This document shows, in pieces, positions 54,220 to 64,000 of a DNA stretch of 64,000 nt. Position 1 is the first letter of the stretch. Each line of letters opens with the position of its first letter. The position numbers and the translations under genes are program-made. This stretch comes from Callorhinchus milii (taxonomy: Eukaryota). The notes beneath the pieces were generated by a model, which was given only the letters and a program-made list of their open reading frames with translations, was not told the origin of the DNA and did not search any database. Location: positions 6,758,001 to 6,822,000 of the forward strand of contig NW_024704760.1 of assembly GCF_018977255.1 (NCBI RefSeq). The letters run 5' to 3'.

Positions 54220-54639
54220 CCTCAACCGGGTGGCAATGACACTCCATGGAAAAGCCTCTGGTGCTGACTCACCTCCTCATGCTCCCCCCCCCCCCAACCC
54301 CCACCCCCCACACACACACACACACACTCTCACTCACTCTCCCCCTCTCCTCTCTCCCCCCATCCCAAACCCTCTCTCCCCTTCCCCTCCCCCCCCCTCT
54401 ACTCTCCCCCTCACCCCCCCCCACACACACACACACCCTCCCCCCTTCCCCTCTCCCCCCCCCATCTCCCACCCTCTCTCCCCTTCCTCTCTACTCTTCC
54501 CCTCCCCCTCTCCCTCTCCCCCTCTCCCACACCCCCTCTCCCCCTCTCTCCCCCACCCCCTCTCCCCCTCTCTCCCCCACCCCCTCCCCCCTCTCCTCCC
54601 CACACCCCCTCCCCTCTCCCCCCCTCCCCCTCTCTCGGG

Positions 54640-54656
54640 CCGGAATCTCGCGAGAT
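54640..54656 (+). promoter_or_regulatory. UBE2T promoter: ETS core (CCGGAA) abutting TCTCGCGAGA (CGCG/BANP) element
   Basis: CCGGAATCTCGCGAGAT at 54640-54656; TCTCGCGAGA at 54646-54655; GTGAGT donor 50 nt downstream. Confidence 0.7.
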
Positions 54657-54705
54657 CAGGAGCCGCGACCGCGAGAGCGCGGGAAAGAGAGACACCGCAG
54701 AGAGA
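54657..54705 (+). other. UBE2T: Putative non-coding exon 1 of UBE2T (start uncertain)
   Basis: CpG-rich segment ending at GAGA|GTGAGT donor (54706); first coding exon has an acceptor 15 nt before ATG, requiring an upstream exon. Confidence 0.55.
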
Positions 54706-54720
54706 GTGAGTAACCGCGAG

Positions 54721-55160
54721 AGGACAGAGAGACCCCGGGGGGGGGGGGGGGGGACAGAGAGACCCCCGGGGGGGGACAGAGAGACCCCCGGGGGGGGGGG
54801 GGACAGAGAGACCCCCGGGGGGGGGACAGAGAGACCCCCGGGGGGGGGACAGAGAGACCCCCGGGGGGGGACTAGCTGGGGGGAGTGACGGGGGGGGGGG
54901 AGAGAGTGACTGGGGGGGGTAGTGACTGGCTGGGGGGGGGGGGGAGTGACTGGCTGGGGGGGGGGGGAGTGACTGGCTGCGGGGGGGGAGAGTGACTGCT
55001 GCGGGGGGGAGTGACGGGGGGGGGGAGAGAGTGACTGGGGGAGAGTGACTGGCTGGGGGGGGGGAGAGTGACTGGCTGCGGGGGGGAGTGACGGGGGGGG
55101 GGAGAGAGTGACTGGGGGGGGGAGTGACTGGCTGGGGGGGGGGGGGCAGTGAGAGAGTGA
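54721..55160 (+). repeat. G-rich VNTRs (GGACAGAGAGACCCCC(G)n then GAGTGACTGGCT(G)n)
   Basis: About six units of the first type then about a dozen degenerate units of the second; long G runs. Confidence 0.85.
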
Positions 55161-55260
55161 CGGATTGGGGGATGGTGAGTGTTTGGTGTAACCTGGAGAG
55201 TGTGAATCACTCCTGATCTTTCAGCCCCAGGATGGCGGTTGCTGCGTGAACCTTCTTGTT

Positions 55261-55800
55261 GGTCTCGCTCTCAGTTGGCCTGGCTCAGTAGGTCTCGCTC
55301 TCAGTTGGCCTGGCTCAGTAGGTCTCGCTCTCAGTTGGCCTGGCTCAGTAGGTCTCGCTCTCAGTTGGCCTGGCTCAGTACGTCTCGCTCTCAGTTGGCC
55401 TGGCTCAGTTGGTCTCGCTCTCAGTTGGCCTGGCTCAGTACGTCTCGCTCTCAGTTGGCCTGGCTCAGTACGTCTCGCTCTCAGTTGGCCTGGCTCAGTA
55501 GGTCTCGCTCTCAGTTGGCCTGGCTCAGTTGGTCTCGCTCTCAGTTGGCCTGGCTCAGTAGGTCTCGCTCTCAGTTGGCCTGGCTCAGTTGGTCTCGCTC
55601 TCAGTTGGCCTGGCTCAGTACGTCTCGCTCTCAGTTGGCCTGGCTCAGTTGGTCTCGCTCTCAGTTGGCCTGGCTCAGTACGTCTCGCTCTCAGTTGGCC
55701 TGGCTCAGTTGGTCTCGCTCTCAGTTGGCCTGGCTCAGTTGGTCTCGCTCTCAGTTGGCCTGGCTCAGTTGGTCTCGCTCTCAGTTGGCCTGGCTCAGTT
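55261..55800 (+). repeat. 30-bp minisatellite, 18 units, derived from a SINE 5' head
   Basis: Unit [G/C]GTCTCGCTCTCAGTTGGCCTGGCTCAGT[A/T]; last unit runs into GGTCGCACTCTCGCCTCTGAGGCAGAAGGTTGTGGGTTCA SINE body (to ~56055). Confidence 0.95.
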
Positions 55801-56211
55801 GGTCGCACTCTCGCCTCTGAGGCAGAAGGTTGTGGGTTCAGGCTTCACATCGAAGCTTTGTACCCATTCATAGTCTAGGCCGATTCTCCCAATTCAGTGC
55901 TTCTCACCCGGTGTCTTGGCCAACAATCCCCCCAAATAAAAGTGGGCCTTTACTTCAATGGCTGTTTGTGGGGCCGTCACAACACTTTACCTGGTGTCCT
56001 GTGAAGTGCTCCGAGACGTCCTCCTGACGTGAAAGGCGCTGCACGAAATGCAAGAGTTCTGATAAAGTCCCGCAGACGTCATCAGTTCGAGCAAATTTGA
56101 AGGATGAGTTGCAATCGCGCGTGAGAACGTTGGTTGATGTTCACCCCCCACCTTCCCTTAAGCTGCAGCGGCTTGTGTTTTGTGTGTACCTTGCAGAATA
56201 AATCTACAACA

Positions 56212-56317
56212 ATGCAGAGAGCTTCAAGGTTGAAAAAAGAGTTGCAGCTTTTGACGAATGAACCCCCGCCTGGAATCTCTTGTTGGCAAGATAACCAGAT
56301 GGATGATTTGCGAGCAC
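56212..56317 (+). CDS. UBE2T: Ubiquitin-conjugating enzyme E2 T, coding exon 1
   Basis: Acceptor TTGCAG at 56196; MQRASRLKKELQLLTNEPPPGISCWQDNQMDDLRA + C|GTACGT. Confidence 0.95.
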
Positions 56318-56978
56318 GTACGTTTGTAATCTTTCGAGCGGACTCGTTATGTTTAGGAGAGCCGCAATCATTTCAAGTTCCAATGTTTATTGCATATTAT
56401 CTTTCGCACAACTAACATTCTGGGACTACTACTGGATCTTTTTTCCAATTCACTGTCTTTGTTTTTTTTTAAGAAATGTTTAGAATACAATCCAAAATTA
56501 CATTTGTATAGCGCCTTTCACGTCAGGAGTATGTCCCAAGGCGCTAGACAGTCAGTGATTTGGACCCGAGAATCGACTAGCGAGTCTGGTGTAATAGCTG
56601 GTTAAACAATCTCTTCTGAAACCTGAGTTTGAATCCTCCTTAGACCAATGAAATCAGCATCTACTCTCAAGCGTTTGAAAGTAGATTAGCTTTGGGCAAC
56701 CCATTTGGTAGGATTTTATCGCCTCATACAGTAAAATTTACTGACCTATGAAGAATAGAATACTCTTGTCTGTCGAGGTCAGGAAATTTACCGTTGTTCA
56801 GAGAACTCTACCATTGATGTAGATGTACGCAGACTTTATTAAACCTGTCTTGTTACAGCTGGGCAAAACTGCAGGGCATGGGGTTATAGTGATTTTGTGG
56901 CATGCTGCAATCTGTCTTTACATTTCTGGCTTTCAAGCCAGAAAGTATATTTTAACAGTTTGCAATCTTTCCCTCTAG

Positions 56979-57048
56979 AGATTTTAGGACTCGTTGACTC
57001 ACCCTATGAAAGTGGGATTTTTAGTCTTGAAATTATTCTTCCTGAAAG
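56979..57048 (+). CDS. UBE2T: UBE2T coding exon 2
   Basis: 70 nt; (Q)ILGLVDSPYESGIFSLEIILPE(R), AG/GT flanks. Confidence 0.93.
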
Positions 57049-57147
57049 GTACTAGTAGAGAATTTTTTTTACTGTTGTCTTCATACTATTTCGTAAGTTC
57101 AATGTTTCCATTGTTTTTGCATAGTGTTAATTCTTCGCGAATCGTAA

Positions 57148-57294
<147 letters not shown>

Positions 57295-57404
57295 TGAATT
57301 GATTTTAAAACAAAGGCACTTAGCGCTAGGCTTCCGATCAATATTTAAACAAATGCACAGAAAGTTAAGAGTACTTCACAAAGTAATCCAGCCTCTTAGC
57401 TGGA

Positions 57405-57685
57405 TCATTTTTTGGGTGGGTCAGCCGGGTGTCTTGACACATGCGGAAACCCATCACCATATCCAAACCAAGCTGAGAATTCCATGCATCCCATGCACAT
57501 GTAGATCCCAGAGGTAGATTGTTGGAATGTGATACGCACTCTCTCCCTGGAGGATCGGATCCTGCTTACCTAATGCCGGGAAGTATTATTCGCAAGTTGT
57601 CAGGAGCCAAGGCTTGGGGACCCCTGAGTGTGAGCTGGGATGACTGCTGGAATCTAACCAACTAAAACAACACAGCTTGCCATTC
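57405..57685 (-). repeat. Unclassified interspersed repeat, copy 3 (UBE2T intron)
   Basis: Reverse complement matches 6128-6336 and 16940-17225. Confidence 0.75.
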
Positions 57686-57990
57686 ATAATAATAATAATA
57701 ATAATGATGCTTGTATTTGATGCAGCGCCTTATCTCGTCTTCGAGACGTCTCAAAGAGCTTCACAGAATATACTGTAAAGTGAATTGAATAGATTTTGTG
57801 AGCGATAGCACTGTTTGGCATGCTTTCTCATTCCTTGTCCAGCTGAATTTACAATAATAAAAATAATAATAATAATCCTTGCATTTGATATAGCGCTTTT
57901 CATGTTTTCTATATATCTCAAAGCGCTTCACAGAATATACTGTAAGGTGAATTGACTGTATATTTGTGGGCAAAACGCGGCAGCCAATTA
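57686..57990 (-). mobile_element. Two tandem SINE 3' fragments
   Basis: Tails at 57686-57790 and 57855-57990. Confidence 0.8.
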
Positions 57991-58270
57991 GAATACAATA
58001 CAAGCAGAATTAGAAGTGAGTGAAATCTTTTTGAAATTACCAAACTATTATACTTGCAATTATTTGGATATTGAGGAGATTCCCGTCTTAAAATGAAGGA
58101 CAACTGAGATTATTATGCCCGGAAAAAAATTTAGTTTCTTAAAACACTTAAGTGTTAGGCGATTAGTGTACTTAATACTTGGAAAAAATGTTTTATTGTA
58201 AAGTTGGTCTTGGAAGTGCTAAATGCTCGAATTAGTTATGCATTAAAATGCTAATTTTATTCTTCTACAG

Positions 58271-58369
58271 GGAGCCTGGAAGCCATCTCTCAGTATCTCT
58301 ACTGTGTTAACCTCCATTCAATTGTTGATGTCGGAACCCAATCCAGATGATCCCCTCATGGCTGACATA
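58271..58369 (+). CDS. UBE2T: UBE2T coding exon 4
   Basis: 99 nt; [45 protein letters not shown] flanks. Confidence 0.96.
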
Positions 58370-59870
58370 GTGAGTTGATATTTTAAAAGCTGGAATTGTT
58401 TAGAGAAACCAAAAAAAACCGGGCACTTTACCGTGAATCCTGTGAAGCGCTTTAAAATGCTCTGCCACGCAAACAGCACTGTATCAAATGCAAGGTTTAT
58501 TATTCTTTGTTAAACCAGGAATATGGGCAACGAGACTTATGGCTGGCTCTGAGGTACATTCCAGATATTTCATGTTAGAATTTGTACCAAGAAGATAAAT
58601 CATTGCCGGTCGCTGAGAGAAGTAGGATATCTTGCCACCAGGAAGGATATAGCTGTACTTAACTTACGGCATGAAATTAGCCATTGACGGTTTCAAAATA
58701 AACATAGCATTTTATTCAGCAAATAAATCTTAACCTTGGGTGGGCAAGGTCCAGGACAATGCAATTTCATTTTACAGGATCATTGGTCCAAAAATATTGC
58801 GTGCCTTTTGAGTGGTACAGTAGCAAAGCAAGGTTCCTACCACTGGAGGGTGCTTCAGCTTTATATCTCAGAGGGCCTTTAATGTCTAAAACTCCACTGC
58901 AATCGTGAACAGACCTGTTCGTGAAAGATTCTTGTTGGCACAAATATTAGTGTTGATTAGTATACCCACTATATAATGTTGTAAATCAATGTGCTCTTGA
59001 TAAAATGTTAATCAGATCTAAATTCTGTTAATTCTTCAATTTGACCGCTTATCGGATTTTTTTTAAAATGGTTGCGTTTTGAGTCTCCCTAAATCAGCAA
59101 AAAAAAACTGCATACATGCAGATGAATTTTTTCTGATTTTTTTAAAAAAAAGCTCCACTGTTGGTCAAATATATTAGGAATCCATTTTTGAACTCTTTTC
59201 ATTGGAAGAATTGTACAACGTTCAGCATTATTGCAAATTACAAGCTTTTTCAATGCTCGAGGTTGTATTAGATTCTATTCTGGTCAGCGAAAACATTCCT
59301 CCTTCATTAAACTTGGATTTTAATTTGAATATATGAGAAATCATTTATATTGTGGAAGCAAGTGTAGTTGAATGTGTACTTGTTTAATGTGAGGTGTGAA
59401 GAGTTATTTTACTGATTCTAGTTGAATAAGATCAACCACCACCTAGGCTAGAGATATTCTGAAAAATCAGACTAATGTAAATCACTAGAATAGTTGATTG
59501 TTTTCCCCTGTCCCTCATCCGTAATACAGAGTAAATCAAAACTCCTTACTCATAGGTCTATCTGAGATGTTCAAACTACATGTCATTTACACATATCAAC
59601 TCGGTAACAAACGTTCACAAACTTGATGAAAGACATCTCCTGTAAGAGTTGCACAATCTCTTAACAATGTTGTCTTAAAAAACATAATTAACGACTAAAA
59701 ACTATGATTCACCCTATATTCGTATAGCACAGAAGGAAAAGGTCAAGATTATGTTTATCCAATTACATAGTTCAAAGAGTTTGAAATGTTTGAAATGTCC
59801 TGGTGTACAGCATATTTGCTGTACTCTGTCAGCTAACTACCAACTCTATAATCTTTTCTATATTTTTCAG

Positions 59871-59960
59871 TCAGCAGAATTCAAATACAATAAGCAGTCT
59901 TTCATTGAAAATGCAAAACAATGGACATTAAAGCATGCAACGCAAACTAAAAAGGATGAG
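59871..59960 (+). CDS. UBE2T: UBE2T coding exon 5
   Basis: 90 nt; SAEFKYNKQSFIENAKQWTLKHATQTKKDE, TTTCAG/GTATGT flanks. Confidence 0.92.
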
Positions 59961-60093
59961 GTATGTTTGGGCCTTGGGAAGAATTTGGGATTTTGCTTTC
60001 CTACACCTGCTCTTAACAACATGGCGAATGCTCATTAGCTCTTCATTAGATTTATTTTCTCCCTCTCTTCTCCTCTGCCTGCCCCATTTCTAG

Positions 60094-60150
60094 CCATTAA
60101 GTCCCCTCAAAGAGAATCGCAGTCAATTGGATTCTGCGACTGAATTTTAA
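60094..60150 (+). CDS. UBE2T: UBE2T last coding exon (as written: PLSPLKENRSQLDSATEF*, 175-aa protein; 195 aa ending at 60229 if the 19-nt insertion is removed)
   Basis: Polypyrimidine tract + TAG acceptor at 60093; TAA at 60148-60150; AATAAA at 60308. Confidence 0.7.
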   Translation, partial: PLSPLKENRSQLDSATEF

Positions 60151-60307
60151 TTTGAATATATGAGCTTCTCTGGTTTCAAGGAAGAGATCTGCCAGCGATA
60201 CTGAAGATGCCAAAAAGCCTTGTTTGTAGATTGTATGTAATATTTCTTGTATTTAATACCTTTTCTTCTTAATGCACTTTCAGAAGCTTTGTAAAATTGA
60301 ATTGCTC

Positions 60308-60313
60308 AATAAA
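60308..60313 (+). terminator. UBE2T polyadenylation signal
   Basis: AATAAA downstream of last exon, second AATAAA ~60334, T-rich tract follows. Confidence 0.65.
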
Positions 60314-60452
60314 ATATTTTTTTAAAACGGTGAAATAAATCACCTTCCTGAGTTTTTTTTTAACATCATGATGACATTCAAAAACAATTTTGTCAACCAA
60401 GTTGTTTTTTGCTAAATGATGCACAAAAAGAATTTTCTCCCAATGATGAGAT

Positions 60453-60690
60453 TCAACAATAACACATTACACGTGTATTATGCCTTTCACGTCGGGAGGA
60501 TGCCCAAAGGCTCTGGACAGTCAGCGGTTTGGACCTGAGCTGGGGGTTGGGATCAGGAAGGGTGGAGGGCAGGTAGGGATAGGAGAGTGACCGAAGGTGC
60601 AATTGAGGAAGAGGGTCTTGAAGGAAGCAAGGGAAGGAGCTAGGCAAAGGATCTGTGGGGTGGGGTTTCAAAGGGTGGGGGCAGAGAGGC
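60453..60690 (-). mobile_element. L2 LINE 3' end
   Basis: Similar to 7111-7370. Confidence 0.8.
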
Positions 60691-61034
60691 TGTGGATTAT
60701 TCAGTTATTTTTCAAATGTAGCTTTGGTGATATTGACACTTCAAGTGCTGATCAAAAAGAAACGACCAGCCAAGTGCATGGAAACTCAAACGTGACTGCC
60801 TATCTAAATCATGAAAAAGACCCTGGGATTTGTACTGCGCTCTTACAATGCATTGTGTTTTTAGTCATTATTAAAAGTCTGTACTTTGCAATTGAGATTC
60901 AACTGATCTCAAACTCCTCAAATAACTAGACCAGATCAACTTGGTCAAGTAATGATGAACTGACCCGATACTGGATGGGTGGATCTGTGCTAATCTTGCA
61001 TCATATTCAATAAAAAAATGTCAAACTGAGGTCC

Positions 61035-61255
61035 AGAAACGAAAACAACAGTCGCTAGGAACACTCGGCAGGTCAGGCAGCATCTATGGAGAAAGGAAAG
61101 TGAGTCACCGTTTCGGGTCCACGACCCTTCGTCAGAACTGGGGCACGTTGGGAGGGAGAGGCTTTTAAGGGCTAACAGTAAGTGGGGAGGCAGGGCAAGG
61201 AAAACAGGAGAAAATGGGGCAGAGGACGGGATGATAGGTTATTAAAGGTGTAAAA
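61035..61255 (-). mobile_element. Penelope-like pseudo-LTR fragment with hammerhead-like motif (61103-61139)
   Basis: Near-identical to left arm at 46719-46819; minus strand AGTT-CTGACGA-A-GGGTC-GTG-GACCC-GAAAC-GG-T-GACT. Confidence 0.65.
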
Positions 61256-64000
61256 AGAGGTCCCGTCTGCCTGGTCAGATTTAAGCCCCACGTTTGGGAC
61301 ATTGAGCTCGTATTCTAGACTGATGCTTCATTGCAATGTTGGGGTGACGTTGCTTCTCAGAAGTGCCATTCTTCAGATAAGGTATTATTTATTGAGTACT
61401 GTCTGTTCAGGTAGACGTTAAAAGATCCCATGGCACTATTAGAAATGAGAAGTTTCTCATCCCGGGCAACACTTCCCCAAATAAAATGAATCATTCACTT
61501 CATCAGTGTTTGCCGCTTGCTCCATGGAACTGTCTTTCAAAATCTCTCCACCTCCTTTCCTCCCTCTGCTTTCAAAACCCATCTAAAAACCTATCCCTCC
61601 ACAACCTCTCCGCAGTCATCTTCCAGCTCAGGCTCTCACTCTTGAGACATTCTGCGCCAAATGCACTGCGCAAGTGTGAATTGCTGGAAAAAAACTCAGA
61701 TCGTGAGCTTGATATCTCGGTTGAATTATAGCAGATTAACTACGGTACTACAAGAGTTAAGGCCAGAACCATCTACAAAGACTCCCATCAAAGGGTTCTC
61801 AGCAGATGCTTCATTAGCCCTGCAGCGCTGCTAGCAGTTTCCGGGTGACAGCATGGCAAGATAAATGAGGTGAGCTCCCTCTAAGGTGTGAAGTGTGCGC
61901 TGGAGGAATAGAGTTTGGGGAAAGTTGCTTCTCACTGATTGCAGCAGGGCCACCTGCTGTTTTTTAACCGAGGATGATCTAAATATTCATTGTGCCCTTT
62001 AGCGCTAGTTTTTATATCGTTGGCCCAGAAAATGAAATTGTAAATGCAATTTCACTTGCAAAAACATTGCCTAAGCTTTCCCCAGATCGCCTTTAATGAG
62101 ACTCGAGTCTCTACTGGATATCAAAGTGTTTATTAGGATGGTGCAGAATGATTCACCAAACAATTTTTACAGCTACGCTGAGGTTTGGGGAGGGAGGGAA
62201 GACATAAAGCCACTTGCTATAACTTGCTGCGTTTAATGCCTGCAGTTTCATCCACATGGCCTTTGTGTGTGGTGGAGTGGTGAAAGCTTTATAATATTTA
62301 CCAGTATTTTTTCAAATAAACTCAAATGCTCTTTTCTAGGACCTAATCACAAGAGAGGTGCCCTATTTCGGATGAAATGTGGAAGTTAAAGATCCCATCA
62401 CACTATTCGAAAAGAAAAGGGAGTTTCTCCCGGTGTCCTCGACAAGAAATCCCACAACTAAAATCGGTCACTCACTCCATGTCTATCTGGTACACCGCTG
62501 TGCACAATTACCTGCCGCGTTTCACCACAAAATAATCATTCAATCCACTTTATAGTATATCCTGTGAAGCACTTTGAGTCGTCTCGACAACGTAATAAGG
62601 CGCTATATCAAATGCTCTAAGACACTACCCCGTGTTGTATTAAATACTAATGGACTCAGACAGTGTGCTGCCATAGGACATTATTTCAGTTTCTTGCAAA
62701 GTTCTTACACATTAGTTTCTCACCAAGTCTGTTATGTGCACTCGTGAAGACTGGTTTGGTTGCATGATAATTAGCTATATTTGCAAAACAATTAGCATAA
62801 CTCAACAAGATGACAAATCTTGAGGGTGAAGGATTTATATTCTGTCCAGCACTGGAACCTGGTGGGGTGGAAAGTGAGGACAAAGCGGGAAGAGGGAGTG
62901 TGGGGGTGTGGAGATTTTTTTCCAGTGAGGGGTTGGAGATGGAGGTGGGTTGGGTGGCAGGGAGGCGGATGGAGGAGTTGAGAGGGCTTTGTCGGTGATG
63001 GTGATGTCCAAGACCATGAGGCCCCAGGTAGGATAAGCTATGGGTCTTATAGAGGCACGTTATGTCAGAGACAGAGGCTTACCAAACAGGCTGTTGTCTA
63101 TCACCCATTTTGTAATTCTCTATTAAAGGAGATAACTGGATATGCATCACCACAAGCCCTACATATGCACCTCAGAAGGAACCAGCTGCAGAAGGAAGGC
63201 CAGATTTCATCGTCTAGATTCTTTCACCTGCAATTTAGCATGCTCACTTTTTGTTCTGCATTCCTCAAGCCTTTTCTTCTCTTTGTTTGCTCTTTTGGGT
63301 GAAACGTTACATTATTTTCAGCTGAATAAAAGTATGAGGCATCAAGTGATATGGCAAGAATCGGATAATTGCATTAAGTGGCACAAGTGTTTGGTGTGTT
63401 TTGTTGGAAAACACAGCTCTGCACACGTATAAATCCATGGTTATACGGTGAGAATTCAGAGCTGAAATAAGCATTTCACAATGTAATTTTGAAAAGCCAA
63501 GGATGCAATGGTAACAGTAATTCCTTAAATCCTCCTCCATTCCTAGGAGTTTGTATTTCAAATTAGTATTCATGTTTGTTGATAATTTTTGAGGTACTTT
63601 GAAGTGCGGTGGGTAAGAATATACTTTGTTATCTTGATTTTAAATTGGTCTGTCTTGTTGGGAAGTCAAACATAAGTTATTAATGGGCATGTCTAGTCAG
63701 ATAACACATGGATATATGTAATTTGGGCAGCAATAGGACTAAATTACATAACGTTAATCTCACAGGAATTTGCCCACAAAACATGCCTGAAGGGGAAATG
63801 ACTACAATAGGCTAGACAGAAAATAGAAATTTGCATTTGGCATATTAAATGAACTGCGGTCGCACATGGAATTTCTGTAAACAAACATCGGTTAACCGTG
63901 TTTGAAGGTAAACATTGATTGCAGAATCTTGCATCATAACTGTCCGCCTCATGTGGCTAAATGTATATGGACAAGAGGCTCCAAAAAAGTAAATATGTTT

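Follow-up and report, generated by a model that had tools for sequence, protein, structure and literature searches.

A probable intron-templated replacement in the last exon of UBE2T strands the basic C-terminal tail of the Fanconi E2 enzyme in the 3' UTR of Callorhinchus milii

UBE2T (FANCT), the class III E2 enzyme of the Fanconi pathway (human Q9NPD8, 197 aa), normally ends in an extension of ~45 residues with a KR...KK motif, whereas the gene of Callorhinchus milii stops after 24 residues of it. How this stop arose, whether it is general in the species and what became of the tail are the questions raised by this locus, which lies in a 64,000-nt stretch of contig NW_024704760.1 (hereafter the window; all positions refer to it unless stated otherwise, Table 1). 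Six spliced coding exons read in frame into the TAA at 60148-60150 and give a protein of 175 aa ending in ATEF, a truncation of UBE2T by 21 residues. The original prediction had read this product from the DNA alone, and it agrees with the database: the translation is identical to XP_042197935.1 and one residue off NP_001279345.1 (AFK11147.1), both named C. milii UBE2T, 175 aa long and ending in ATEF.

Table 1. Features of the UBE2T locus in the window
Feature	Position	Strand	Remarks
UBE2T coding exon 1 (ATG 56212)	56212..56317	+	model translation identical to XP_042197935.1
UBE2T coding exon 2	56979..57048	+	gene model matching XP_042197935.1
UBE2T coding exon 3	57180..57285	+	HPN and catalytic Cys (C85, aligned to human C86)
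UBE2T coding exon 4	58271..58369	+	RNA loose ends connect exon 4 to 59871
Intron flank ending in TTGGA (59313-59317), candidate priming microhomology	59312..59317	+	TTGGATT shared with exon 60127-60133
Intronic 21-mer, inferred template	59317..59337	+	single-copy region; most or all covered in organism B depth bins 59287-59360
UBE2T coding exon 5	59871..59960	+	phase-0 donor; RNA joint skips 133 nt, GT..AG, 3/3 RNA runs
UBE2T last exon, translated part	60094..60150	+	ends ATEF-stop (TAA 60148-60150)
Deletion-insertion, inferred extent (32 nt where organism B has 16, net +16)	60132..60163	+	comparison with organism B
Exonic 21-mer copy	60144..60164	+	86% AT; source of TAA and of TGA (60161-60163, tail frame)
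Stranded ancestral tail frame, now 3' UTR	60164..60229	+	21 codons and TAG; RKR...KK motif; no stop or frameshift
Ancestral 3' UTR	60230..60332	+	AATAAA 60308-60313; contigs of two RNA runs end 60331-60332

The UBC domain is complete. Human UBE2T structures, two of them with chains of 154 and 156 residues, can be aligned to residues 1-158, with E=2.5e-85 for PDB 5ngz. The domain is closest to UBE2T, and HPN, the catalytic Cys and the equivalent of human K91 (K90 here) are intact, bearing out the intact domain claimed earlier. A genome search found matches of 63-83% in exon order exclusively at the UBE2T locus on C19, all other loci being partial and at most 64% identical; the C. milii genome has one full UBE2T gene, and the search found no tailed paralogue. 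Two inverted E2-like loci 38 kb apart on another contig (G000:C5:26128798-26129043 and 26090317-26090451) match part of the UBC domain of ray UBE2T at 51-64% identity and probably belong to another E2 family. At the 5' end of the gene, coding exon 1 has one codon fewer than its human, shark and ray counterparts (56290-56300). An in-frame upstream ATG (56137-56211) gives the 25-residue N-terminal extension of the UniRef models P0001 and P0009, which spans an apparent intron acceptor (ttgcag, 56192-56197) and is probably a prediction artefact. A tandem array with a 30-nt unit (55138-55917) and G/C-rich simple repeats (54270-55150) lie upstream of coding exon 1.

The stop is found throughout the samples of the species. 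Of 24 runs, eight were compared, five of them from C. milii and from four studies: X1 and X3 are likely DNA, and X5, X7 and X13 likely RNA; no run is recorded as RNA, and the status is an automatic guess, although GT..AG joints are present in all three. In each of the five, a single contig crosses the site without a gap there and carries the 21-nt patch that holds the TAA. Mapping of reads and RNA at this site had been proposed with the original prediction, and the patch in all five runs leaves no sign of an assembly error. Such an error, for which we found no support, would have a vanishingly small probability and is rejected, as independent DNA and RNA contigs and the RefSeq cDNA-type record share the sequence. 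X1 and X3 carry other chromosomes than the window, since they differ from it at 59408, 59859, 60069 and 60250. These within-species differences, with a further one at 60352, comprise two substitutions, a CTC insertion in the pyrimidine tract of the last acceptor, and 1-nt indels within or after the 3' UTR.

Tail-intact chromosomes could still be segregating, given a sample of only five and contigs that drop rare variants; among the 10 chromosomes sampled, an unseen tail-intact allele could reach ~26%. We regard such a polymorphism as very unlikely, because the patch is shared by the five samples from four studies, by the window and by two database proteins distinguished by residue 167. Since the 175-aa form equals the RefSeq UBE2T, it is the normal C. 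milii protein rather than a rare allele, and the earlier term "truncated allele" is not appropriate for a patch that none of the five samples lacks; "fixed or nearly so" is a fair wording.

Could the tail still be made? RNA contigs of all three runs join 59960 to 60094 (GT..AG) and splice directly into the exon that carries the TAA, as expected from the original prediction. A stop in the last exon of a spliced message is not expected to trigger junction-dependent NMD. The tail frame is undamaged, and on paper the tail could be regained, in part or in full, through an AG before 60185 or through mini-introns of 43 or 64 nt that end at 60164, so that production through alternative splicing or recoding might be imagined. 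We find this highly improbable: 60094 is the sole acceptor in the three RNA runs, none of which has a joint within the last exon; the AG before 60185 is preceded by an out-of-frame one before 60181; and a +1 slip at TTT-TAA reaches the TGA at 60161-60163 ahead of the tail, which blocks frameshift rescue. Moreover, a late event equally predicts an undamaged tail. Among the 14 AGs enumerated as alternative acceptors, one retains most of the tail and none is used in the RNA contigs, so the earlier proviso that another acceptor might restore the tail finds no case in the three RNA runs. The patch also makes a branch-point-like TTTTAAT ~30 nt before a pyrimidine-rich AG (60144-60181; exon start 60181), use of which would give an out-of-frame ending of seven residues, not seen in the three RNA runs. 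Retention of the last intron (59961-60093) would give the 207-aa model P0009; a low-depth X5 contig over 59931-60121 may be pre-mRNA or DNA.

The patch has an evident partner within the gene. The 21-mer of the last exon recurs with no mismatch in the intron upstream, as originally noticed, and no third match is present in the window at up to three mismatches. The whole 0.99-Gb genome holds exactly two exact copies, spaced 827 bp (control 0); none of 100 shuffles had two matches, and the analytic probability of a copy within 1 kb by chance is ~2e-8. The intron around the upstream copy is single-copy, and with two copies genome-wide a dispersed repeat was rejected as the source. Two-copy exact repeats of at least 18 nt within 3 kb number 17 in the window (11 direct, 6 inverted). 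Flanks were scored for the direct ones, among which the 21-mer is unique in having flank identity at random level (13/60, against 31-40/60 in the others).

The state of the exon before the patch can be read from a related species, organism B, and from a fragment elsewhere in the C. milii genome. In organism B, one contig of run X19 (record 17) covers 60085-60325 with 222 letters against 241 in the window; 16 of its 19 gaps fall within 60133-60163, and its frame is open to the same TAG. This exon is known from that single contig of one run, X15 and X20 not spanning the site in one piece; its gap count is complete, and single residues are uncertain as six of the 25 letter differences are unlisted. 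The reconstructed last exon of organism B has 120 nt and 39 codons, where the earlier reconstruction had 38. The fragment, L002 (1468-1590; G000:C1:44542544-44542665), lies on another contig and is an old copy of the last exon of UBE2T together with the start of the 3' UTR. It is 83% identical and likewise 16 nt shorter, has an open tail frame with the stop changed to TAC, and is followed by a common repeat. No other UBE2T exon (UBC) lies within 10 kb of it, and it is likely a 5'-truncated retrocopy. It likely predates the split from organism B, to judge from its sequence, because it keeps residues found in sharks and rays, and it can be regarded as a fossil, within the genome, of the exon before the insertion.

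Proteins of sharks and rays give the same picture. A tail-bearing isoform is present in all 11 named species retrieved, in agreement with the earlier claim that the truncation removes a basic tail encoded by orthologues; no UBE2T protein of another chimaera was found among the 120 matches listed of 437. The distance from a conserved Q to the basic cluster is 12 residues in nine of the 11 species, in organism B and in L002, and a 19-nt cut in C. milii would make it 11. As organism B and L002 are both shorter by 16 nt and the spacing of 12 residues is kept in nine of the 11 species, the net change at the site is +16 nt with respect to both outgroups, and the patch is derived in the exon. A 19-nt insertion into an exon for a 195-aa protein, as originally put forward, is therefore not borne out, the ancestral exon having 39 codons. 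Cutting 19 nt does reopen the frame to the TAG at 60227-60229 as claimed; since cuts of 16, 22, 25 or more nt do so equally, the figure is a choice rather than a measurement.

The direction of copying likely runs from intron to exon, because the exon of organism B lacks the patch, while in its runs X15 and X19 the intron is covered across bins 59287-59360 (depth 5.25/18.4 and 7.15/25.0) and not in the adjoining bins. Judged from these bins, the depth ratio of 3.5 in both runs best fits a 27-nt single-copy piece (59318-59344), and the template is likely present in the organism B intron. The piece itself is absent among the matches listed for organism B, and a further species, organism C, has no depth in 59287-59360. 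The window and organism B differ at five positions of the 66-nt stranded tail, and at all five the window has the letter of L002. This and the identity of the two 21-mers suggest that the event was comparatively late and that the tail was under selection for most of the branch, although the numbers are small.

The junction holds further information. Between the anchors TTGGA (ending at 60131) and GCTTC (starting at 60164), the window has 32 nt and organism B 16 nt. Differences from organism B are concentrated immediately 5' of the 21-mer, at five of 13 positions (p=0.002), or three of 11 and a gap (p=0.045), compared with five of 66 in the tail, which suggests that the event starts near 60132. 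TTGGATT is present at both 59313-59319 and 60127-60133; a match this long occurs at 23 of 6305 control positions and one as long as the ancestral 5-mer TTGGA at 32 of 6305, so that the null is 0.4-0.5% for both lengths of a match that was noticed post hoc. The candidate microhomology is thus 5 nt (TTGGA) on the left, 12 nt upstream of the long tract and likewise noticed post hoc, and 1 nt on the right. The flanking homology of 1 nt described in the original prediction depends on the 19-nt cut, and the TTGGA upstream is a better candidate. For the middle 10-12 nt, no template of at least 8 nt was found in 56000-63000 of the window; a 6-nt inverted match at 60117 is no better than chance and was rejected.

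One of three gap models does align the junction as a clean 19-nt insertion with a separate 3-nt deletion and five substitutions. On that account a 19-nt templated insertion with 1-nt flanking homology was added to an unrelated earlier 3-nt deletion and nearby substitutions, which would explain the open frame 5' of the patch as well as the frame reopened by a 19-nt cut; in worms, TMEJ typically involves homology of a single nucleotide (PMC4490562). We consider this rather unlikely, as it needs the five substitutions in 13 nt against five in 66 next door as well as an independent loss of a codon at this site, and leaves the TTGGATT match to chance. An intron-templated replacement of 16 nt by 32 nt, with the stop at 175 aa in all samples and a tail loss that was likely tolerated, is in our judgement the probable history.

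The 21-nt patch was likely copied from the intron 827 bp upstream by a template switch during repair or replication, as its uniqueness and the comparison with organism B indicate, and to this extent the original proposal of a patch templated from its own intron is upheld. In such a switch, a 3' end at the exonic TTGGA (60127-60131) would have annealed to the TTGGA of the upstream template (59313-59317). Stuttered synthesis would have given TT and then ~10 further nt, followed by 21 nt copied from the intron and a return to the exon at the 1-nt G overlap, with loss of 16 ancestral bases. The switch may have been of the MMBIR or fork-stalling type, or theta-mediated at unusually long range. The allele could then have drifted to fixation fairly late on the lineage, as the enzyme would still charge ubiquitin and serve FANCL.

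Among known systems, insertions made by Pol-theta (TINS) are defined as at least 5 bp identical to flanking DNA with a template within 50 bp, and their first-round tracts are "rarely more than 10 bp" (PMC7165422). The patch resembles them (PMC7165422, PMC4490562) in its size within 3-30 bp, its AT content (21 nt, 86% AT), its direct-repeat arrangement and the accompanying deletion, and differs by a single tract of 21 nt, which is long, and by a template at 827 bp. Since this distance far exceeds 50 bp, a template switch during replication or repair is the better fit, and the "Pol-theta signature" of the original prediction does not agree with the published definition. Insertions of the MMBIR type (MMB-TI) are likewise short templated patches, with possibly several switches and with microhomology at the junctions, for which TTGGA is a candidate here, but the C. 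milii patch lies in a coding exon and in every sample of the species, whereas gene-disrupting events are expected mainly in disease; germline events of at least 25 bp number ~100 per human individual (PMC8421209). As in that type, the segment is absent from the exons of organism B and L002 and, on the evidence of the depth bins, its template is likely present in the organism B intron.

What was lost can be judged from other vertebrates. Of 134 UBE2T proteins retrieved, 109 with tails of canonical length were kept; the 25 left out were two exon-skipping forms without the anchor, 14 shorter ones (including four C. milii entries) and nine longer ones. Two basic clusters 5-14 residues apart, a loose pattern, are present in 101 of the 109. 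The classical bipartite NLS pattern is KR-x(10-12)-K[KR]x[KR]; it occurs in none of the 109 tails nor in the stranded tail of C. milii, so the "bipartite-NLS-like" label given earlier fails in the strict sense, and the loose two-cluster pattern fits. While an extension of ~40 residues with the basic motif is a mark of UBE2T orthologues, the 24 residues of C. milii have a net charge of -1, and the motif is left in the 3' UTR.

The extension is described as unstructured, poorly conserved and of "negligible effect" on FANCD2 monoubiquitination in vitro, on the basis of unpublished observations cited there (PMC5095918), and Ube2T 1-152 has been used in FANCD2 ubiquitination assays (10.1101/429076). 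Nothing further on the tail came from 10.1101/854158, PMC9996685 and PMC4951507. A search by title and opening of abstract, with subscription journals mostly outside its coverage, found no report of importin-alpha binding or nuclear targeting by the tail. The C. milii genome has FANCL RING exons and 28 FANCD2 matches. The mass of the 175-aa protein is 19.9 kDa, at which passive entry into the nucleus without a signal is plausible. The C. milii protein is thus likely a catalytically competent enzyme without a tail, as predicted from its sequence, and the loss was likely tolerated, given the complete UBC domain and the in vitro activity of human UBE2T without its tail. Conservation of the motif in 101 of the 109 argues for a role in vivo, so that the loss may not be harmless.

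The truncation would also remove the tail lysines, which in human UBE2T are auto-ubiquitinated (10.1101/429076). The loss may then have been selected, altered auto-ubiquitination, stability or location of UBE2T benefiting the animal, as would suit a motif otherwise conserved and an event that looks late and yet is present in all samples. We hold this to be distinctly unlikely, since the loss concerns a single lineage for which drift suffices and the lysine near the active site (K90, human K91) is kept. A broader proposal, which we advance as speculative and quite unlikely, is that the KR...KK tail is an unrecognised regulatory element of UBE2T throughout vertebrates, of which C. milii would be a natural whole-species knockout, made by a long-range switch and possibly selected. 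If true, the motif would act in nuclear targeting, as an auto-ubiquitination switch, or both, and the Fanconi E2 of C. milii would be differently localised or less self-inhibited.

The 175-aa protein already stands in the databases as the reference entry, and both such scars and lineage-specific loss of disordered tails are of known kinds. A literature search linking "Callorhinchus milii" with "UBE2T", which mostly did not extend to subscription journals, found no account of the cause of the short form. The locus offers a clean, datable deletion-insertion in a coding exon, for which template, outgroup and genomic fossil are all at hand, and it draws attention to a conserved motif inside an extension that reviews call poorly conserved (PMC5095918). 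The C. milii gene shows that a vertebrate can do without a UBE2T motif retained by 101 of 109 homologues, which bears on how truncations late in the Fanconi gene FANCT are to be read.
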